From the NCBI GenBank assembly GCA_963816145.1, contig CAWFJP010000011.1:96001-160000 (forward strand): 64,000 nucleotides of DNA. The letters are read 5' to 3'. Each line of letters opens with the position of its first letter. Positions within the stretch are counted from its first letter, which is position 1. The position numbers and the translations under genes are program-made. Under the pieces are notes generated by a model. That model did not search any database and was not told the DNA's origin. It worked only from the letters and a program-made list of their open reading frames with translations. Of the stretch, positions 42,224 to 53,348 are shown one piece after another. This DNA is from an uncultured delta proteobacterium. GTDB lineage: Bacteria > Desulfobacterota > Binatia > UBA9968.

Positions 42224-44212
42224 TTATCCTCGCACCGACAAACCCGACCAACTCCGGTCGCGTATCGCAAGTGCAGGATCCGTCGCAATCGGCTTTTCGA
42301 TAAACAGGTGGTGAAGCGCCTGCATGCCTAATACTATCCCGGCAAGAGTATCGATTAAAATAAAAGCCCGCTTCGGTAGCCATTTCCAATACCACAGCAA
42401 ATGACGAATAAATTCCGGGCGGAACAGGCCGGTGGCGCGCAGCCGATCGGGCGCTAAAAACTCACGGAACAACCGCGCACCTTCGACCGTTTGCGTGAAG
42501 CTGAGCCAGTTGGGCGACAGAAAGGGATATTTATGCGTTTTAGCCATTGTTGGCTGCAACAGATCGGTGAAGGCGGTGCGCAACAAACGTTTTTCCATCA
42601 ATTGATCGATGTCCATGAAATAAGACGGATCAACGGTGGAGACGAATTCCATTAAATCCCGATCGAGGAAAGGCGTCCGGCATTCAACTGAATTAGCCAT
42701 TTCAACCCGGTCGCCAAGGCAGGGAATAATGTAACTGACCAGCTGGTTGAAAGTCATTAGTTTGGTGGCGTTGAAAGGATCCATTTGAGACAGTTGTTCC
42801 GGCGGAAATTCGGACAGGAAATAGTCGTAGGGAGTCCGATAGCTCGTCTGGTCGAGGATTTCAGGCGTGAAGATCCATTTCATGCCCCGGGTGCCGTCGA
42901 CCGCACGCATCTGCTGAAAACTTGGATAGCCAAAAATGAGTTGAAGCTTGCGCCAGTGGTTACTCCGGCTCCAGAGAATGCCTTCCGAAGGGGTCTCAAG
43001 CTTTTTGAACCGGTCCCAGAGGACGCGCCCCTGGCGGGCTTGCTCGCCTCCGGCCAGCAACATGCGCCAGATTCTTTCTAATTTGAAATAGGCATAGCCG
43101 CCGAAGACTTCGTCCGAACCCTCTCCGGTTAGGCAGACTTTATAGCCCTTGGAGCGTACCAACCGGGAAAGTACCTGCTTGGCGATGGAATTGGGATTGG
43201 CGATCGGCTGTTCAATGTGAAAGATCGTTTTGAGAAAATTCTCCGCCAAGACATCATTGCTGCAATCGATGGCCTCAAACTGGGCGCCGTAGTGAGCTGC
43301 GGTTTGCCGGGCGGCAACAGTTTCGTCGTAGATCGTCGTGCCGAAGCCAACACTGAAAGCCTTAAGTTTTGAGGTTGCCGCCGCCGTCAGGCCGCAAACC
43401 AACGTAGAGTCCAGCCCGCCACTCAGATAGGCGCCGACGGGAACGTCCGCGACCATCCGGCGTTCCACGGCCTGAGTGAACAACCGGCGAACCTCGTCCT
43501 TGGCCTCAGTAAAGGAAATGGCGGGATTTGTTTTGAAAGTCGGCTGCCAGTAGGGCACCTCGCGCGAGTGGCGCTCGGACTCAACGATAAGAAAATGCCC
43601 CGGGTTGAGATTGCGGATTCCTGCAAAAGCCGAGATCGCGCGCGGGAACACGCCCAGCATGGGGCCAATCATGTAATCTGGGTTGAAACTTCGGGGCACC
43701 CGATTGAGTGCAAAGATCCCTTTGACCTCAGAACTGATCAGGATTTCTTTTTCGGTTTCCCAATAAAAAAGCGGCTTAACGCCGCAGCGGTCGCGCGCCG
43801 CCAAAAGCCGGTGGTTGCGCCCATCCCACATGATAAACGCAAATTCTCCGTTTAGTTGGTGGATAAAATCCATGCCATGCTGCTCGTAGAGATGAACGAT
43901 GACTTCGGTGTCCGAATGGGTGCGGAAACAATGGCCCTGGTCAATCAGTTCCTTGCGCAGCCGTTTGTAATCGTAGATTTCACCATTGAAGGTGATGCAA
44001 ATGGAGCCGTCTTCGTTGTAGAGCGGCTGATCTCCCTCCTGGAGGTCGATGATGCTCAGACGAACATGGCCGAAGGCAACCGTCCCATGTTCGAGCAAGG
44101 CATAGCCCGCGCCATCCGGGCCGCGGTGGCTGATCGCCGAACACATCCGCGTGATGTCTTCGCGCTCGGCAGGACTGCGATCCTTTTTCAGGATCATGGA
44201 AATGCCACACAT
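42224..44212 (-). CDS. asnB: Asparagine synthase (glutamine-hydrolysing) family amidotransferase
   Basis: MCGI, HRGPD, RLSIID, FNGEIY, SDTEV, LSGGLDS, GEGSDE, ECRTPFLD. Confidence 0.9.
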   Translation of the reverse strand: MCGISMILKKDRSPAEREDITRMCSAISHRGPDGAGYALLEHGTVAFGHVRLSIIDLQEGDQPLYNEDGSICITFNGEIYDYKRLRKELIDQGHCFRTHSDTEVIVHLYEQHGMDFIHQLNGEFAFIMWDGRNHRLLAARDRCGVKPLFYWETEKEILISSEVKGIFALNRVPRSFNPDYMIGPMLGVFPRAISAFAGIRNLNPGHFLIVESERHSREVPYWQPTFKTNPAISFTEAKDEVRRLFTQAVERRMVADVPVGAYLSGGLDSTLVCGLTAAATSKLKAFSVGFGTTIYDETVAARQTAAHYGAQFEAIDCSNDVLAENFLKTIFHIEQPIANPNSIAKQVLSRLVRSKGYKVCLTGEGSDEVFGGYAYFKLERIWRMLLAGGEQARQGRVLWDRFKKLETPSEGILWSRSNHWRKLQLIFGYPSFQQMRAVDGTRGMKWIFTPEILDQTSYRTPYDYFLSEFPPEQLSQMDPFNATKLMTFNQLVSYIIPCLGDRVEMANSVECRTPFLDRDLMEFVSTVDPSYFMDIDQLMEKRLLRTAFTDLLQPTMAKTHKYPFLSPNWLSFTQTVEGARLFREFLAPDRLRATGLFRPEFIRHLLWYWKWLPKRAFILIDTLAGIVLGMQALHHLFIEKPIATDPALAIRDRSWSGLSVRG

Positions 44213-45707: not shown

Positions 45708-46499
45708 TTATTGAGTCGCCCGAACTAAGCCGCCATCGATGGCGATCGTCGTGCCGGTAATATAACTCGCTCGATCTGAGCCAAGAAAAACGATCAAGTC
45801 GCCGGCTTCCTCGGCCGTCCCATAGCGTCCCAACGGCACCTCCGCCGCCATCTCCTTGTTGATTTCTTCCACCGGACGGCCCAGGCGATCGGCGCGGGCT
45901 TTGTTCAATTTCTGCGCGCGATCGGTATCGATGCGGCCAGGGCAAACGTTATTGAATAGAATATTGTCGCGGGCCAGCTCCCGTGACAGGGTCTTGGCCC
46001 AGCCGATCACCGCGCTGCGCACCGCATTGGACAGCACCAACCCGGCGATCGGTTCTTTGACCGAGTATGAAGTGATGTTGATCACTTTGCCGCCGCCGAC
46101 TTTGCGCAGATGCGGCACCGCCTCGCGGGTCATGCGCATGGTGCTCATAAAACTTAGGTTGAAAGCGTTCTGCCAGTCCTCATCGGTAAACTTCATGAAC
46201 TCGCCGGGAGGCGGGCCGCCGGCATTGTTCACCAAGACATCGACCCGGCCAAAATGTTTCGCGGTGTCGTCGACGAATTTCTTGATATCCTCCGCCTTGC
46301 TCATGTCCGCGACGATTGCCAACACCTCGCCGCCGGTTTGCTTGCGAATTTGCTCCGCGGTTTCTTTCAAGGCAGCTTCGCCGCGGGCGCAGATCGCCAC
46401 CTTGGCGCCTTCGCCTGCGAATCCCAGCGCCGCGGCCTTGCCCATGCCCTGACTAGCGCCGGCGACCAACGCCACTTTCCCTTTGAGTCCGAGATCCAT
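45708..46499 (-). CDS. SDR family oxidoreductase
   Basis: MDLGLKGKVALVAGASQGMG, NNAGGP, SNAVR (atypical catalytic motif), PGRIDT, IDGG. Confidence 0.92.
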   Translation of the reverse strand: MDLGLKGKVALVAGASQGMGKAAALGFAGEGAKVAICARGEAALKETAEQIRKQTGGEVLAIVADMSKAEDIKKFVDDTAKHFGRVDVLVNNAGGPPPGEFMKFTDEDWQNAFNLSFMSTMRMTREAVPHLRKVGGGKVINITSYSVKEPIAGLVLSNAVRSAVIGWAKTLSRELARDNILFNNVCPGRIDTDRAQKLNKARADRLGRPVEEINKEMAAEVPLGRYGTAEEAGDLIVFLGSDRASYITGTTIAIDGGLVRATQ

Positions 46500-46598
46500 G
46501 TGTGCTTTTCCCCCTGGTAGTTTTGAATGTGCCGGATACTAACAAACCCGCTTTCATGGGTCAAAATCACTTAAAGCCGAGTGATAAAACAATCACCA

Positions 46599-46844
46599 TC
46601 ACTTTTGCGCCCAGTAAATATTATCGCGAAACTGCGGACTGAGCCGCTTAATATAAAGACAGAGCATGCCATGCACGCCCAGCTGGCGCAGCTTGCGCGG
46701 ATCGCCCGAGCGTAGCGCGTCTTTCTCTTCGCTCGACAAATCGTATTGACCCAGCACCGATTCGAAGTCTTGCAGTGACTTTTGATAGGTCGTTTCATTC
46801 ATCTTCAAATCGAACAACAGCCGACTCAGATCATAGCAGCTCAT
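46599..46844 (-). CDS. Aromatic ring-opening dioxygenase LigA-like small subunit
   Basis: YDLSSEEKDALRSGDPRKLRQLGVHGML; adjacent to LigB. Confidence 0.8.
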   Translation of the reverse strand: MSCYDLSRLLFDLKMNETTYQKSLQDFESVLGQYDLSSEEKDALRSGDPRKLRQLGVHGMLCLYIKRLSPQFRDNIYWAQK

Positions 46845-46915
46845 GTTTGTCTCCAACTAGCGGCGCGATTGACGTTGTGCTTTTCCAACCCGAGGGTGTA
46901 ACCCGAAACCCGAAA

Positions 46916-47782
46916 CTAACTCAATTTCCAGCTGACAAATCCCCAGCCTGTGGCAACAAAGTCCGGCATGTAAGCGGTAAAACTCGCTTTGGCATCGCCG
47001 ACTGCGCCAAGCACCACCATCCAGTTGAGAAATTCCGTATCGCCGGCGTGCAAGAGTTCTTGAACTGAATATTCAACCAAGCTGCGCCCTTCGCCCTTGC
47101 GCATCACTTCAAGCAGCTTGTGATCGAAACTCTCGTCGATCTCGCCGATGCGCGGCGAGCCGGGGAAATGCGACAACCCGCCGGTGGCAAGGATCGCCAC
47201 TCGCTCTTTCGCGTTATTCGCCACTTCGCGGATCAGTTCACCCACTTGAAAGCAGCGCCGCGGCGAAGGCGCCGGATCGACCCAGGTGTTCACATAGATG
47301 GGCAAGATCGGCATCGTCGGCTGCGGCAGCAGAAAATACAGCGGCACCGTCTGCGTATGTTGCAACTCGACATGCTCGCCGTAAGAAAAGTCGATGCCCT
47401 TTTCCATGCCGGCGCGGAGGATCGCTTTGCCGAGTTCCTTGTGATTCTGATAATCGAACCTATGCCGGGTGAATTGCCCCTGCACTCGATCGGCGATGGT
47501 GACAAAAAACGTCGGAATATTGTTCCAGAAAAAATTAACGAACTGATCGTTGGCGACAACGATCAGTACGTCCGGCTTGGCCCGCTCTAGATCGGCGCGC
47601 AGCGTTGAGAACGCGACTTCCGCGTCATGCCGCAGCTTCTGCTGTTGCTCCAGAGTCGGACGGTTGGCCGAACCCTGCGGCGCCATGCTGTAGTGCAAAT
47701 CCATAAAATCTTCCCACTCTCGTCCGGGTTCGAGAAGAATATTCGGCGCATGGCTCGCCGCTAAGGCGGAAACTAGTGGCAT
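46916..47782 (-). CDS. Class III extradiol ring-cleavage dioxygenase, LigB family
   Basis: ASHAP, PDVLIVVANDQF, QH..TVP, ATGGLSH, FD, EFLNW. Confidence 0.9.
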   Translation of the reverse strand: MPLVSALAASHAPNILLEPGREWEDFMDLHYSMAPQGSANRPTLEQQQKLRHDAEVAFSTLRADLERAKPDVLIVVANDQFVNFFWNNIPTFFVTIADRVQGQFTRHRFDYQNHKELGKAILRAGMEKGIDFSYGEHVELQHTQTVPLYFLLPQPTMPILPIYVNTWVDPAPSPRRCFQVGELIREVANNAKERVAILATGGLSHFPGSPRIGEIDESFDHKLLEVMRKGEGRSLVEYSVQELLHAGDTEFLNWMVVLGAVGDAKASFTAYMPDFVATGWGFVSWKLS

Positions 47783-47960
47783 AGCTCAAACTCCTTCGCA
47801 AAGTGAGCGAAATCCTATGCCCCGACCTGGGAAAATGCAAGATGAAACGGCGGGAACAAAAGAAGAGTGACGGAAGATAACAGCAACTTGAACAGCGAAG
47901 AACCGAGGTAAGCCGATGCTAGACAGACCAGTGATCTGTCCGTTCGCGGCGCTGGCCGAT

Positions 47961-48107
47961 CTAAAGCATGCGATAGTTACGCACTGAAACCCAGATCGCC
48001 ACAAAGACAACGACGAGTGACACAATCGGGTGATTCAACACCCACACTAGCGCCGGTTCGAAAGCATGCCGGGTAACCCACTCAAAAGACCGTGAAAGTT
48101 GTTCCAT
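47961..48107 (-). CDS. Small 48-aa membrane protein (not in ORF track)
   Basis: MEQLSRSFEWVTRHAFEPALVWVLNHPIVSLVVVFVAIWVSVRNYRML*; GAGGTGAGG upstream; one TM helix followed by basic residues. Confidence 0.55.
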   Translation of the reverse strand: MEQLSRSFEWVTRHAFEPALVWVLNHPIVSLVVVFVAIWVSVRNYRML

Positions 48108-48533
48108 GCCGCACCCTCACCTCAATTATTTTTTACTATTCTATTACAACCGCTGCCTGCCGGGAACTACAATTCTGCTCCCATCAATTAAATTAAATGG
48201 CCGCCCGGGTTGCTCGGCTATCATTGCACAGCCATTTTTATTGAAACATGCACCGCGCGAATCGCCTCGCCGTCAGCCAAACTAACCAGCCACCTGGACG
48301 TCATTGACAAGACAGAACCATTGTCGACCCACAGTCTGTCCGAGCGTTGAGGTAATTTAGGTCAGTTTTAGATCATTTACGCAAGATATAAGTAGACTTC
48401 TGTACATTCCTGGACGAGGCTGAACAATTCTGCAAGCTTCGACCTCGGATTTCACCATCCACTCGATTACCCAAGCTCTCGTAACTACCTAAATTTACGC
48501 AGAATTCACCCACCCGAAGATATTTCGAGAGTC

Positions 48534-48549
48534 TGGCACCGCGGTTGCT
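48534..48549 (+). promoter_or_regulatory. Sigma54 (-24/-12) promoter
   Basis: TGGCAC-CGCGG-TTGCT with exact GG-N10-GC spacing, about 40 bp upstream of AAGGAG and the ATG at 48588. Confidence 0.75.
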
Positions 48550-48587
48550 CTATCGTCGGTACATCAACGCAAATAAAGGAGCATCCG

Positions 48588-48737
48588 ATGAAACTATTAC
48601 TCGCCACCATGTTCAAGAAAGTTCCCGTGCGCAAGACCAAACAGCGCGCGACGATCTGCAAACAATGCGGCACGAGAATCTACTCGTTGAGTTTTCTCAA
48701 AGCCCATCTCGAGTCCCATAATCGGAAATCGCACTAA
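48588..48737 (+). CDS. 49-aa basic protein with a classical C2H2 zinc finger (not in ORF track)
   Basis: MKLLLATMFKKVPVRKTKQRATICKQCGTRIYSLSFLKAHLESHNRKSH*; C-x2-C-x12-H-x3-H; strong AAGGAG RBS. Confidence 0.7.
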   Translation: MKLLLATMFKKVPVRKTKQRATICKQCGTRIYSLSFLKAHLESHNRKSH

Positions 48738-48762
48738 TCCATAATTGCAAGGAGATAGGAAA

Positions 48763-48969
48763 ATGGAAGTCCCGGTGATCCCGTGGAAAGTCTTTCTCGA
48801 CGCCCTTCAGCATCAGCAAGCGAGTACCTTGGAGCCTTGGTTGCGCCGCTGGTGGTTCACCAACGAAGGCGTGATTATGGAAAGCTCGGCTTGGCAAGAC
48901 ATGGTTGGTCGAATCGACAATAGCGCAGCAGACCATGAAGCTGTTCAAGCGCAATTCGAGCAGCGATAG
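48763..48969 (+). CDS. Small Trp-rich hypothetical protein (68 aa)
   Basis: AAGGAGATAGGA RBS; MEVPVIPWKVFLDAL...LEPWLRRWWFTNEG. Confidence 0.55.
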   Translation: MEVPVIPWKVFLDALQHQQASTLEPWLRRWWFTNEGVIMESSAWQDMVGRIDNSAADHEAVQAQFEQR

Positions 48970-49171
48970 TCAGCGGCCGGTCACGGCGCGCTGCAATCAT
49001 CCGCTCGCGGTGATCGTCGATCCGACCGAGCGGGAGGTGAAGGAACTCGAAACCATGCTCGCCCACTGTCCCAATTGCAGTCAATGGCATCCCGGCGACG
49101 GTCCGATCATGGCGGTACTCAACAGCACTGAAGATTCGAGTCAGAATAATTCCAACAACCATTCGCTGTGA
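48935..49171 (+). CDS. Small hypothetical protein with CxH...CxxC putative Zn site
   Basis: MKLFKRN...RCNHPLAVIVDP...HCPNCSQWH; overlaps the previous ORF by 35 nt. Confidence 0.45.
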   Translation: MKLFKRNSSSDSQRPVTARCNHPLAVIVDPTEREVKELETMLAHCPNCSQWHPGDGPIMAVLNSTEDSSQNNSNNHSL

Positions 49172-49210
49172 CACATCGAGAAAAATCACCGACACCAGGA
49201 AAGCGCAACC

Positions 49211-49477
49211 ATGGAAGCCCTAAAGATCATTCTCCCGAGCGCCGAACGCAAACCCTGCGTGTGCGGCGCCACGCTTTATCGCACAAACGTAACGAGGCCT
49301 CAGAGCGAACCGATCTGGCTCTGCTCGCGCCACTGCGGCGCCCGCGGCCACACCTACGAAGGCGCGCTGCGGCGCAAAATTAGACTGGATCTGTTGAGCT
49401 GGGGCGATCTGCGGCGCAACGCGCAGAAGTTGATTGCCGCCGACACGGAAATCGAAGATGAGTTTGTTTTGCAATAG
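49211..49477 (+). CDS. Small hypothetical protein with CxC...CxxxC putative zinc ribbon
   Basis: KPCVCGA...WLCSRHCG; AGGA upstream. Confidence 0.55.
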   Translation: MEALKIILPSAERKPCVCGATLYRTNVTRPQSEPIWLCSRHCGARGHTYEGALRRKIRLDLLSWGDLRRNAQKLIAADTEIEDEFVLQ

Positions 49478-50080
49478 CAATGGCGCTTATTTCCACCTCT
49501 GTTTTAATCCGGATAAAGTGCGGTCATGCCGCTGTATGGAGTTGCAATAGCTCAACTGACGATAAACTTGTTCGCTTCAGTCTCCCTGGTGTAGCGCGAC
49601 AGTGATCGCAGTCTTCCACCCCTGGCCATTTTAACAACAAGAGATAGTCAAGACATAAATGGCCTGAGCGCAGTTCCACTACCTGGAATACCCCGCGTCC
49701 GAAATGCATTCGTCGAGCTAGTCCATCTAGTCAACAACGTGCCGTCCATCCAATGTAAACACGCGATGTGGATAGGCGACGACCCCTTGAATGCCATCCG
49801 AAGATCACCCTGTTTCAGCCGTTGTCCCGGGGGCAAGTCCGACACTTTTCAAACCATCCACCGTTTTCTGTGTGACGCGCTTATCGTTCCCGAGGAACGC
49901 ATGGACCTCGTGCCGGTCATTTGTTGTTTGCCTTTGGGTGACAACCATTCGAGCAAATGTGGAGGCTTTGCACACGATCTTCGCGTTTCTGTTGATCAAG
50001 GTAAATCTAGCCGTTAACTGTTCCGGTGATTCTGGCTTGTTCGTTACCGCATCTGCCATTGAATGCCGTTAATTTAAGCT

Positions 50081-50110
50081 TTGTAGTTTTGTCTCGCACG
50101 CAGCTATAAT
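50081..50110 (+). promoter_or_regulatory. Putative sigma70 promoter of the A-PCP gene
   Basis: TTGTAG-N18-TATAAT, 60 bp upstream of the start. Confidence 0.4.
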
Positions 50111-50170
50111 GCGTCGACTAAAATAGTGAAAGGTTGGCACCTAGAAGATCGAAAAGTGTGAGGCAAAACT

Positions 50171-52132
50171 ATGAAGTTACCGCCGGAGCAAGAAGCTATA
50201 CGAGCGAAGTGTTTTCATCCATCGGGAACGTTTGTTGAGTTCCCCTCAGAGGATGTCGAGACTTCAATCCCGGCGCGCTTTGAGAAAATGGTAAGAACGC
50301 ATCCGCACCGCATAGCAATCAAAGCGGGAGAGTATACGGTTCACTATGACCAGCTTAATGTGATGGCGAATCGCGTGGCGGGAACTGTCATTGGCGAGGC
50401 CTCCACAGCTGCTGGACCAGTATGCATGTTGATTGATAATGGACCGGACTTGATAGCCACAATGCTCGGCATCTTGAAAGCTGGCCGATTCTTTACCCTT
50501 GTCGATGCGTCTTTTCCGAAGGCAAGAATCGACTCTACCGTTAGAGACTCCCAATCAAGGTTGCTTCTGCATCAGAAGCGGCATTCGTTGCTGGCACAAG
50601 AGATTGCGGCGGGTTGTAAATTGGTGCAAGTAGAATCTCTCGAAACTTCCGCCTGCGGCGATAATGCTGTGATGCCAATTGCGCCGACTGATCCGAGTAC
50701 AGTGATATATACCTCGGGTTCAACCGGCCAACCCAAGGGCGTTGTTCATAGCCATCGAAGTCTGCTGCATAAAACTTTGCGGCGCACCAACGCATTTCAC
50801 GTGTCCCCGGAGGATAGAATAAGTCTACTTTCCTCAGGCACGTCCAATGTGGTTTCCATTGCATTTAGCGCAATCCTCAACGGCGCGGCCCTTATCACTT
50901 TCGATACACGAAAGGACGGTATTCTTAACTTAAAGGGATGGTTACAGGCAGAAAAGATTTCTATCGCTTTTATCAGTGCGCAGTTTTTTCGAATGCTATC
51001 CGATAGTTTGACAGAGAAAGATGGCCTCCCCGATCTTCGTCTGGTTCGCCTTTCAAGCGAGGCGGCTCGCTGCGGCGACTTTGAGCTTTTTCGAAGACAT
51101 TTCCCAAAACATTGCACTCTAGTTAATGGGTTGTCGTCCAGCGAAACTGGAGTCATAAGAAAATACTTCATGGACCATAACTCGCAGATGTTCACGGACA
51201 ATCTGCCTATCGGTTATCCCGAGGAGGGCATGGAAATATTTTTGCTGGATGATAACGGCCAGCAGGTCGGGGTCGACAATGACGGCGAGATCGTGGTTCG
51301 AAGCAAGTATTTGGCGTCCGGATATTGGAACAACCCAGCTTTGAGCGCAGCCAAGTTTAAGCAGGACCCGGAGGACTCAGAGAAGCTGATTTACTACACG
51401 GGAGATTTAGCGCTGATGCGTCCGGACGGTTGCCTGATCCATAAGGGACGAAAAGACTACCGCATAAAAATACGAGGTTACGGGGTCGACCTTTTGGAGG
51501 TCGAAAAAGCTCTGCTATCGCATCCGGACATTCACGAAGCCCTGATAACGACAATAGAAAAGGAGGACGGAACTGCTCGTTTGATCGCCTATTTTGTTTG
51601 CGGTCGCCAAGGCGATGTTACAGTGAGCGAGCTACGAAACCATTTGAAGAACAAGCTCGCTGAATACATGATTCCATCGCTGTTTATCAAACTCGACCAT
51701 CTCCCTCTGACTGCAAACGGAAAGATTGACCGTAAAGCTCTGCCCAAGCCGGATCATTCGCGCCCGGAACTATGCTCGCCGTACGCTAATCCACAGAATC
51801 AGATTGAAGAGTACCTGGTGCGGATTTGGGAGGAAGTCCTTGATGTCCGCCCCCTTGGCATCGACGATAACTTCTTCGACGTGGGTGGTCACTCTTTGGC
51901 AGCGACTATGGTTGTCTCCCGCGTTATCCAACAGTTCCAGATCGACATGCCACTGAAATCGCTGTTTCAATCTCCGACCATCGCCGACATGGCCGCCGTA
52001 GTCACCGCACATCTAGGGAAAACTTTAGACGAGAACCAGTTGGAAATTATCCTAGACGAATTAGCGTCGTTATCGGACGCGGAAGCTCAGCAGCTTGTGA
52101 GCGAAAGTAATTCGACGATCACCAAAAAATAG
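50171..52132 (+). CDS. Stand-alone NRPS-like adenylation-PCP didomain protein
   Basis: A3 YTSGSTGQPKG, A6 GEIVVR...GYW, A7 YTGDL, A8 GRKD..IKIRG, A10 NGKIDR; PCP DNFFDVGGHSL; C-terminal acidic helix. Confidence 0.92.
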   Translation: MKLPPEQEAIRAKCFHPSGTFVEFPSEDVETSIPARFEKMVRTHPHRIAIKAGEYTVHYDQLNVMANRVAGTVIGEASTAAGPVCMLIDNGPDLIATMLGILKAGRFFTLVDASFPKARIDSTVRDSQSRLLLHQKRHSLLAQEIAAGCKLVQVESLETSACGDNAVMPIAPTDPSTVIYTSGSTGQPKGVVHSHRSLLHKTLRRTNAFHVSPEDRISLLSSGTSNVVSIAFSAILNGAALITFDTRKDGILNLKGWLQAEKISIAFISAQFFRMLSDSLTEKDGLPDLRLVRLSSEAARCGDFELFRRHFPKHCTLVNGLSSSETGVIRKYFMDHNSQMFTDNLPIGYPEEGMEIFLLDDNGQQVGVDNDGEIVVRSKYLASGYWNNPALSAAKFKQDPEDSEKLIYYTGDLALMRPDGCLIHKGRKDYRIKIRGYGVDLLEVEKALLSHPDIHEALITTIEKEDGTARLIAYFVCGRQGDVTVSELRNHLKNKLAEYMIPSLFIKLDHLPLTANGKIDRKALPKPDHSRPELCSPYANPQNQIEEYLVRIWEEVLDVRPLGIDDNFFDVGGHSLAATMVVSRVIQQFQIDMPLKSLFQSPTIADMAAVVTAHLGKTLDENQLEIILDELASLSDAEAQQLVSESNSTITKK

Positions 52133-52454: not shown

Positions 52455-53348
52455 TTAAAATACGGCCGTTTCGCCGCACAGCAAATCTAAGAACGGTTTA
52501 GCCGGCCCCAAGAGTTTCCTATCCTTGTGCGTTATAGCGCGGAACTCACGCTTCATCGGAGAACCGGCAATCCTAGCATAGGCCAACGTATTGGTTTGTT
52601 TCTCCAGTTGGATGCTGCATTGGGGAGTGATGGAACAACCAAGGCCTTCTGCGACCGCTTTTTTTAACGCTTCAGAGGTCTCAATCACCATCATACAATC
52701 GTAAGAGAGTCCGGCAGCACGAAAACTTTCATCGATGATCGATCTTGGTAAAGAGCCCTTATCTCTTAAAATGAGTGGGAATTTGGCGATTTGCTTTAAG
52801 GTTACTTTCGGTCGCCCGGCAAGCGGATGATCGGGGGGGGTGATCAGGACGAATTCATCAGTAAGATAGTGTACGACTTTAAAGGCTGAGGGGTTCGTCA
52901 TAGTTCCCGACACCATTCCTAAATCCAATTCGTTGGCGAGTATTTGCTTTTCAATCTCCGCAGTTTTCTCGACGACAATTTTAATTTCGACATTCGGGAA
53001 TGTTCTTTTAAATTGCACTAACACCTTTGGCAATAAATGAACCGCAATCGTGGTGGTAGCACCGCACCGTAATTGGCCTCTTTTGAAGCCCTTAAGTTCA
53101 TCTATCGCCAAAATCATTTCGTCGAGGACAATCATCACTCGATCGGTATATTCCGCCACGATTCTTCCGGCATCGGTCAACTCAATTCTCCGTCCCAAGC
53201 GTTTGAAAAGCTCAGTGCCTAATTGTTTTTCAAGTTCCTTGACGCGAATTGAGATCGCCGGTTGGCTCAAATGGATCGATTCCATCGCGCGCTCAAAACC
53301 ACCCTTCTTTACGACGGCCGAGAAAGCCTTTAATTGATCAAGTTGCAT
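52455..53348 (-). CDS. LysR family transcriptional regulator
   Basis: HTH LSQPAISIRVKELEKQLG, LTDAG; LysR substrate-binding domain. Confidence 0.95.
   Translation of the reverse strand: MQLDQLKAFSAVVKKGGFERAMESIHLSQPAISIRVKELEKQLGTELFKRLGRRIELTDAGRIVAEYTDRVMIVLDEMILAIDELKGFKRGQLRCGATTTIAVHLLPKVLVQFKRTFPNVEIKIVVEKTAEIEKQILANELDLGMVSGTMTNPSAFKVVHYLTDEFVLITPPDHPLAGRPKVTLKQIAKFPLILRDKGSLPRSIIDESFRAAGLSYDCMMVIETSEALKKAVAEGLGCSITPQCSIQLEKQTNTLAYARIAGSPMKREFRAITHKDRKLLGPAKPFLDLLCGETAVF

Follow-up and report, generated by a model that had tools for sequence, protein, structure and literature searches.

What does a bacterium produce from a sigma-54-type promoter when the genes behind it are four open reading frames (ORFs) of 49, 68, 78 and 88 codons? 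This question is raised by a locus at positions 48400-49477 on the forward (+) strand of a 64-kb stretch of contig CAWFJP010000011.1 from an uncultured bacterium of the Binatia lineage (hereafter, the window is this whole stretch and G000 the genome). A preliminary description of the window had claimed the element TGGCAC-N5-TTGCT at 48534-48549 and four co-oriented small ORFs (here ORF1 to ORF4), both of which are borne out by the sequence. Our analysis leaves us highly confident that the locus is a true operon, encoding conserved microproteins and dependent on sigma-54 and an activator. In the following, we lay out the evidence for the promoter, the genes and the wider family to which the first of them belongs, as a platform to understand what their products might do.

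We compared the locus with 40 genomes in DNA searches (24 from the same genus and 16 from two other families of the order), with a GTDB family set of 90 genomes (G000 and 89 others), and across 32 distinct ORF1 loci collected from the relatives and a species-level genome collection after the removal of duplicates. As most of these genomes are metagenome bins that are not complete, a gap in a count should be read as 'not found' rather than 'absent', and the counts are descriptive because kin are not independent of each other. The genome counts include three genomes flagged as unpublished (G005, G062 and G076), the first of which also contributes the loci L019, L039 and L081 to the locus sets; dropping the three shifts each count by at most 1-2 and leaves the conclusions unchanged. 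The public records with ORF1 mostly bear titles of Candidatus Binatia or Deltaproteobacteria metagenome-assembled genomes.

Several lines of evidence support the promoter. First, the -24 GG and -12 GC are present at the exact spacing of a sigma-54-dependent promoter, and the generalised form TGGCAY-N5-TTGCW has a single match in the window, against a mean of 0.09 in shuffled sequences (9 of 100 shuffles had one match). Second, this strict box is found 48-54 nt 5' of the ORF1 ATG in 31 of the 32 distinct loci. Third, in a DNA search with the operon region, 18 of the 24 same-genus genomes were matched, with the similarity starting at the promoter and not 5' of it; the same search matched 0 of the 16 genomes from the two other families. 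Fourth, an alignment of 18 loci from -175 to +62 revealed four conserved blocks in otherwise diverged DNA: a bipartite element, an A/T-rich block, the -24/-12 box and a short leader, which carries a conserved CATCAA word and the ribosome-binding site GGAGG. The A/T-rich block lies about 35-60 nt upstream, between the bipartite element and the promoter, in most loci. The bipartite element, with the consensus TGTACAAnCTTGCTCA-N5-GGnCAAAnCTGGnCC across loci, begins 120-136 nt 5' of TGGCA in all 18 aligned loci and is embedded in flanks that are not conserved; a word like its site 1 occurs in 29 of the 31 loci with sufficient upstream sequence. In the upstream DNA that, according to the preliminary description, could hold enhancer sites, this element is the putative binding site of the enhancer-binding protein. 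As read from the sequence, these parts are arranged as in an activator-dependent sigma-54 promoter, with transcription predicted to start at about 48560 from the usual -12 to +1 distance.

At NifA-dependent promoters (with the site TGT-N10-ACA) and XylR/Pu-type promoters, the upstream sites are likewise located about 100-150 nt away. The likeness of our locus to these systems lies in the exact -24 GG/-12 GC spacing, in the A/T-rich block and in the bipartite element, which is conserved, resembles a dyad and spans -134 to -91. Certain copies of it, e.g., that of L013, read TGT-N10-ACA like the NifA sites. It differs from them in that the full bipartite element occurs once in G000: a genome-wide scan with all 44 nt returned its own site alone above the threshold. 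A 16-nt half-site model yielded 27 genome-wide matches, which is approximately the chance level; two of these 27 sit 130-138 nt 5' of other strict sigma-54 boxes. The two site-1-like 16-mers, at C29:371045 (L071) and C5:268340 (L073), are 138 and 130 nt 5' of boxes that precede a 67-aa protein of the HTH_17 (excisionase-type) family and a 330-aa TPR protein whose N-terminus is hydrophobic, respectively. Judging from these sites, the two genes and the ORF1 operon may respond to a common activator.

Turning to the genes behind the promoter, HMM scans of all loci recovered the order ORF1 > ORF2 > ORF3 > ORF4 on one strand with no exception, and a simple scan found no terminator-like site between the genes, its sole + strand match lying inside ORF1. 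The shared strand, the short gaps or overlap, the conserved order and the lack of an internal terminator are those of an operon, and we infer that the genes are co-transcribed. Three of the four refuting conditions named in the preliminary description were put to the test, and none refuted it: homologues exist with their order conserved, the Cys/His positions are conserved, and the dN/dS values of 0.08-0.28 are well below 1 for all four ORFs. These values are medians of pairwise Nei-Gojobori estimates from which pairs with dS <0.05 or >3 were dropped; as dS is high they are rough, and none is near 1.

The constant part of the operon is formed by the promoter and ORF1, and every subset of ORF2-4 occurs behind them. 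ORF2 is present in 17, ORF3 in 19 and ORF4 in 16 of the 32 distinct loci; all four ORFs are found in 10, three of which have one damaged member, and ORF1 stands alone in 7, one of which (L042) has just 493 nt of downstream sequence. Thus, of the dedicated four-protein module that had been proposed, the conserved microprotein set behind a sigma-54-type promoter stands, and its fixed composition does not, since ORF2-4 are each dispensable. For the most part, ORF3 and ORF4 are restricted to a single genus. ORF3 occurs in 15 of 30 genomes of this genus, adjoins ORF1 in 3 of 8 genomes of a second genus and has two distant matches in one genome of a third. ORF4 is found in 15 of the 30 other genomes of the genus, always adjoining ORF1, with two distant stand-alone copies in another genus (L079:1338-2030 of G090 and L080 of G091, two near-identical genomes). 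These stand-alone relatives are about 115 aa long from the likely ATG and possess their own TGGCAT-N5-TTGCG box with upstream TGTCA/TGACA repeats. L013, L015 and L042, which are without ORF2-4, have in common a small conserved ORF 3' of ORF1 that is about 84 aa long and contains several Cys (MKILIEMSAEHYSELL...), and L013 additionally carries a 72-aa ORF with CxxC pairs. Other microprotein genes may take the place of ORF2-4.

ORF1 was recovered in 32 of 32 distinct loci and at full length in 40 of the 90 genomes of the family. Its gene is preceded by AAGGAG at 6 nt. An alignment of 17 sequences showed 25 of 49 columns to be invariant, including C24, C27, H40, H44, I31 and L37; the last His (H49) varies and is, hence, not a ligand. 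Its median dN/dS is 0.08 (75 of 153 pairs usable). The textbook consensus of the classical, eukaryote-type C2H2 finger, C-x2-C-x3-hydrophobic-x5-L-x2-H-x3-H, is fitted by ORF1 with both hydrophobic positions included. Pfam searches returned zf-C2HE (E 0.00087, 20.1 bits against a cut-off of 30.1) and zf-C2H2 (PF00096; E 0.0068, 17.3 bits against a cut-off of 25.2); as these scores fall under the curated cut-offs, we term ORF1 C2H2-like without counting it among the members of the Pfam family. The best PDB sequence matches of its profile are eukaryotic C2H2 fingers, namely those of ZBTB17 (E 0.0055) and BCL6 (E 0.067), and in the ESM Atlas it lies closest to clusters of small C2H2 proteins, archaeal ones among them, which we treat as a lead rather than a test. 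While ORF1 shares the spacing of the classical C2H2 fingers, it departs from them in that a single finger constitutes nearly the whole of a 49-aa bacterial protein whose gene sits behind a sigma-54 promoter. It departs from them further in the helix positions that we take, by Zif268 numbering, to be the base-reading ones: these are Ser, Ser, Phe/Tyr and mostly Ala, with Pro at the first in the paralogues discussed below. Such non-DNA-like positions lean towards a contact with protein.

The facultative members display more diverse features. ORF2 is 47-49 aa long in most relatives as against 68 aa here, and is preceded by AAGGAG at 8 nt. W8, F11, W26, W30, F32, T33 and N34 are invariant in 11 sequences, and its median dN/dS is 0.16 (29 of 55 pairs usable). 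Searches of Pfam and the ESM Atlas and comparisons with hhalign found no family, Atlas match or recognisable relative for ORF2. We had considered it as a candidate excisionase-type helix-turn-helix protein; hhalign against the two HTH_17 microproteins of the genome gave a probability of 0.1%, and this candidate was dropped. The start of ORF3 overlaps the end of ORF2 by 35 nt and has no ribosome-binding site; a TTG 30 nt 5' of its ATG would give 88 aa, with the relatives favouring the ATG (MKLFKRNS is conserved). Its C20, H22, C45 and C48 are invariant in 55 sequences, an alignment from which the L018 copy (one Cys lost) was left out, and its median dN/dS is 0.28 (64 of 78 pairs usable). The AlphaFold2 model of ORF3 is of too low a quality for fold searches (pLDDT 56).

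ORF4 is preceded by a weak AGGAA; its N-terminal part is zinc-ribbon-like and gives way to a long helix, basic and amphipathic, that leads into an acidic tail. C16, C18, C38 and C42 are invariant in 55 sequences; H41 varies and is, hence, not a ligand. Its median dN/dS is 0.20 (43 of 45 pairs usable). In the AlphaFold2 model, which is of moderate confidence (pLDDT 69), three short strands bearing the Cys pairs are followed by a 38-residue helix (49-86). Foldseek found no match to this model in the PDB at E <=0.001, and VIA-align recovered single long helices alone, over residues 48-88 (Z <=5.6); the zinc-ribbon part was barely probed. Sequence searches of the PDB gave no meaningful match for ORF3 or ORF4.

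ORF2, ORF3 and ORF4 are each single-copy in G000. None of the four ORFs has an above-cut-off match in Pfam or NCBIfam, and none of the six proteins tested matched PHROGs or PADLOC; no curated family in these collections claims them, and the preliminary description had likewise assigned them to no known family. That description was also right about the ribosome-binding-site-like motifs of three of the ORFs, with AAGGAG at ORF1 and ORF2 and the weaker form at ORF4, and the putative Cys/His ligands that it saw in three proteins (ORF1, ORF3 and ORF4) have proved to be invariant.

Table 1. Positions of the operon, its promoter and the further features discussed in the text (window coordinates unless a contig or locus is named)
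Feature	Position	Strand	Remarks
sigma-54 -24/-12 promoter, TGGCAC-N5-TTGCT	48534-48549	+	TGGCACCGCGGTTGCT
Bipartite upstream element	48400-48443	+	putative enhancer-binding-protein site; diverged copy of the cross-locus consensus
ORF1	48588-48737	+	49 aa, C24-x2-C27-x12-H40-x3-H44, conserved N-terminal arm
ORF2	48763-48969	+	68 aa, Trp-rich, no Cys/His ligand set; facultative
ORF3	48935-49171	+	78 aa from ATG, C20-x-H22 ... C45-P-N-C48; facultative
ORF4	49211-49477	+	88 aa, C16-x-C18 ... C38-x3-C42; facultative
LigB-type extradiol dioxygenase	46916-47782	-	divergent from ORF1
LigA-like small subunit	46599-46856	-	LigB block
Short-chain dehydrogenase	45708-46499	-	LigB block, 45708-47782
48-aa hydrophobic ORF	47961-48107	-	LigB-ORF1 intergenic region
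Asparagine-synthase-like gene (Asn_synthase)	42224-44212		
Stand-alone adenylation-carrier protein	50171-52132	+	653 aa, AMP-binding and PP-binding
LysR regulator	52455-53348	-	beside the adenylation-carrier gene
HTH_17 microproteins	C29:370907 (L071:361-561) and C15:21054 (L072:337-609)	-	67 and 91 aa

ORF1 has company elsewhere in the genome. Among the 58 strict sigma-54 boxes of G000, two precede other small proteins with the pattern C-x2-C-x12-H-x3-H, 69-75 aa in length, on contigs C30 and C13. The alignment of these paralogues is homologous to ORF1 by hhalign (probability 98.2%, E 4e-14, 39 columns), and 17 of 20 further paralogue genes from relatives have a sigma-54-like box 115-140 nt 5' of the first Cys codon. 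Each genome thus has three paralogous lineages of C2H2 microproteins; ORF1 represents one, and the remaining two consist of stand-alone genes. The paralogues fall into two types by their upstream elements, one with TGTACAA/TGGACAA words like those of ORF1 and the other with TGTCA/TGACA repeats.

The family was found in 59 of the 89 other genomes of the GTDB family, in 0 of 33 genomes of two sister families and in 0 of 400 genomes drawn evenly from the phylum. A full HMMER search of 1.84 billion representatives with the paralogue profile gave 166 matches at E <=0.001. These include long multi-finger C2H2 proteins, e.g., one of 3179 aa with 38 matched stretches, and about 100 diverse proteins of 56-70 aa, in a 30-sequence sample of which the invariant residues are limited to Cys, Cys, Pro, His and His. 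This classical-type C2H2 microprotein family has so far been found in one family of uncultured bacteria.

We then investigated the sigma-54 machinery of the genome. G000 codes for one rpoN (one Sigma54_DBD match) and 34 strong PF00158 enhancer-binding proteins. The window contains no PF00158 gene, as had been claimed, the nearest being at C11:178254, about 34 kb from the operon. One enhancer-binding protein, L078:3924-5204 on contig C10, was considered as a candidate activator: it has a UAS-like element, similar to that of the ORF1 operon, and TGGCAA-N5-TTGCT just downstream, followed by a gene without a Pfam match, and its N-terminal domain of about 117 aa is itself without a Pfam match, with DUF4388 and Cache-HAMP genes nearby. 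This N-terminal domain is missing in six ORF1-bearing genomes of the genus (G007, 98% complete; G008, 99%; G003, G004, G015 and G020) and present in six genomes without full-length ORF1. As its phyletic pattern does not follow that of ORF1, we rejected it as the cognate activator.

The genome also offers a wider view of sigma-54 targets. Both of its HTH_17 microproteins are encoded behind strict sigma-54 boxes, and small DNA-binding proteins seem to be common targets of sigma-54 in this organism. Further, the TGGYAY-N5 box in G000 ends in TTGCT 58 times, in TTGCG 49 times, in TTGCC 24 times and in TTGCA 0 times. With the spacing changed to N4 or N6, the counts are 11 and 7 for TTGCA and 12 and 7 for TTGCT, which makes the TTGCA -12 form look purged from the genome.

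Comparisons with studied systems help to frame what such proteins might do. Bacterial proteins that consist essentially of one classical-spacing C2H2 finger are, to our knowledge, rare. In Ros, a protein of about 140 aa in total, the finger is flanked by basic regions. Ros/MucR, the studied bacterial case, resembles ORF1 in being bacterial and having a single Cys2His2 site, yet differs in both spacing and fold: the Ros ligands are C79, C82, H92 and H97 (x2/x9/x4) in a 58-aa beta-beta-beta-alpha-alpha domain (PMC9779718), as opposed to x2/x12/x3 within 49 aa in ORF1. The ROS_MUCR model did not match ORF1 at E <=1, and ORF1 is not a Ros/MucR protein.

The second comparison is with the one-domain zinc-finger microproteins of Haloferax volcanii, the C(P)XCG proteins, for which regulatory or adaptive roles are reported (PMC6562870, PMC10716476, PMC11241148). 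These are likewise prokaryotic, under about 70-90 aa and have little beyond one metal site, and similar motifs are seen in ORF1 (CKQCG), ORF3 (CPNC) and ORF4 (CVCG and CSRHCG). However, with one CxxCG plus HxxxH in ORF1, one CPNC in ORF3 and CVCG and CSRHCG in ORF4, the proteins fall outside the C(P)XCG definition of PMC11241148, and no sequence similarity between the ORFs and the Haloferax proteins was detected. Our literature search, which did not cover subscription journals, found only the Ros/MucR and Haloferax work and no publication tying sigma-54 to such proteins.

The third comparison is functional. Small products of sigma-54 systems are known to feed back on the activator, as in PspA-PspF and HrpV-HrpS. 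The locus is similar in deploying small proteins from an activator-dependent sigma-54 promoter, with the coupling conserved over three paralogue lineages. The ORFs differ in having neither homology to PspA or HrpV nor an adjacent activator gene.

Taken together, these observations suggest the following scheme. An enhancer-binding protein encoded elsewhere in the genome would bind the bipartite element and, once bound, switch on sigma-54 RNA polymerase at the -24/-12 promoter. A single mRNA from the predicted start would then yield the four microproteins, with ORF1 as the constant product and ORF2-4 as optional additions, mainly in this genus. The microproteins, presumably stabilised by zinc, would be made only when the activator fires. 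Through contact with a macromolecule, for which a protein is a likelier candidate than specific DNA, they would either execute the sigma-54 response or feed back on it. In this scheme, the sequence features, their conservation under purifying selection, the coupling of the paralogues to sigma-54-type promoters and the phyletic range are shown directly, whereas dependence on sigma-54 and an activator in vivo, co-transcription, zinc binding and the adaptor/regulator role are inferred. That the products are zinc-stabilised adaptor or regulator proteins under a sigma-54 activator is, in this precise wording, a claim to which we give an even chance. It is favoured by the sigma-54 coupling of all three lineages, the small size of the proteins, their single structural metal sites and the non-DNA-like surfaces of the finger helix.

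Several observations weigh against this scheme. The activator of the operon was not identified, the one candidate examined having been rejected. L012 (G008) has ORF1 without the box; its upstream sequence is unrelated and the contig ends 149 nt away. One distant metagenome member of the wider family is also without a sigma-54 box (n=1), so that the coupling may not extend beyond this family of bacteria. Some genomes show decay, with ORF2 truncated in L002, ORF4 frameshifted in L016 and ORF3 degenerate with a lost Cys in L018, which could reflect assembly errors or weak selection. Metatranscriptome contigs from four soil/sediment runs, short and at a depth of 2-5, cover parts of ORF1-4 and also 48339-48586, 5' of the promoter, with no start, strand or level readable from them. 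Finally, with 8 Lys, 4 Arg and 1 Glu, ORF1 has a net charge of about +11, which suits the binding of nucleic acid as well as of protein.

This last point leads to the main rival of the adaptor/regulator reading, namely that ORF1, alone or together with ORF2-4, binds DNA in a sequence-specific manner and forms the second tier of a cascade that regulates the divergent LigB-LigA-short-chain dehydrogenase ring-cleavage genes. The aromatic catabolism cascade of XylR, XylS and the meta-pathway provides a parallel, and single fingers with basic arms, such as those of the GAGA factor and Ros, can bind DNA, as a strongly basic C2H2 protein like ORF1 might. The genomic context is also suggestive: LigB is found divergently 5' of ORF1, followed by LigA and the short-chain dehydrogenase, in all 28 loci from several genera for which at least about 1.2 kb of upstream sequence is available; the four loci that gave no LigB match had <650 nt upstream, and a separate neighbourhood survey gave 15 of 16. 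The downstream flank, in contrast, varies, featuring an MFS transporter, polyphosphate kinase, AAA_22, an AI-2E transporter, DUF763 or LigD. However, LigB orthologues occur in 72 of the 89 family genomes, including genera where ORF1 was not found (e.g., 11 of 12 in g22). LigAB, therefore, does not need ORF1, and the adjacency is no proof of a functional tie and may be mere positional inheritance. Moreover, the paralogues are not beside LigAB, and the residues at the base-reading helix positions of ORF1 described above count against this role. We regard this explanation as possible, if on the unlikely side.

The remaining features of the neighbourhood are less constant. Of five loci scanned for tRNA genes, three have a tRNA-Phe 3' of the operon (L023:4441-4514, L024:1923-1996 and L031:5447-5520), which may account for the variable downstream flank. 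In G000, about 690 nt of non-coding DNA beyond ORF4 separate the operon from the gene for the stand-alone adenylation-carrier protein, which is not a conserved operon neighbour. The intergenic region between LigB and ORF1 contains a small hydrophobic ORF; since the DNA similarity of the closest relatives stops short of it, it is probably not a gene. Rfam and repeat scans of 47600-50300 revealed nothing of note.

Within the adaptor/regulator reading, a more specific form may be considered, in which the C2H2 microproteins constitute a private regulator class, each with its own sigma-54 promoter, that would act on the activator or the holoenzyme as a feedback or relay, with ORF2-4 as exchangeable partner subunits of the ORF1 branch. 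We view this form as unlikely, albeit worth stating.

A rather improbable alternative is that the proteins are metal or redox effectors serving in zinc buffering, zinc delivery or thiol-redox sensing, induced by metal or oxidative stress via a sigma-54 activator. The invariant four-ligand Cys/His sets of three of the four proteins and the tightly controlled promoter would fit this, as would the finding that predicted zinc-finger microproteins can be metal-free or bind other metals (PMC11241148). Yet one structural site per 49-88 residues makes for poor buffering, ORF2 has no ligands at all, and conservation extends well beyond the ligands, as the invariant columns of ORF1 illustrate. The conserved neighbours also include no metal transporter or metalloregulator.

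It is very improbable that the ORFs belong to a natural-product cluster, whether as its precursor peptides or as its accessory proteins. Such a role would be in line with Cys-rich small ORFs near AMP-binding/PP-binding and Asn_synthase genes and with a weak, sub-threshold match of the LigA-like ORF to an NHLP-clan model. Nevertheless, the adenylation gene does not travel with the operon, the downstream genes differ among loci, the ORFs are conserved over their whole length rather than with a conserved leader and variable core, and no maturation or modifying enzyme is conserved alongside them in the 32 loci. We give equally little credence to the operon being mobile-element or phage cargo, a toxin-antitoxin or a defence module, since the variable downstream flank, the tRNA-Phe and the patchy gene content that might suggest this are countered by the six proteins without PHROGs or PADLOC matches, a region without repeats or integrase, the fixed position beside LigB, the single-copy state of ORF2-4 and a distribution that follows one bacterial family.

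Returning to the reading of these genes as a sigma-54-dependent operon of conserved microproteins, what is unusual is that classical-spacing C2H2 fingers of this kind form three lineages in each genome, every one of them coupled to sigma-54 promoters, in one family as far as searched. The microproteins provide a defined, testable set with which to probe what large sigma-54 regulons produce, and the operon, with its constant first gene and variable companions, offers a case in which to study how new small regulators originate and how their partner genes come and go.

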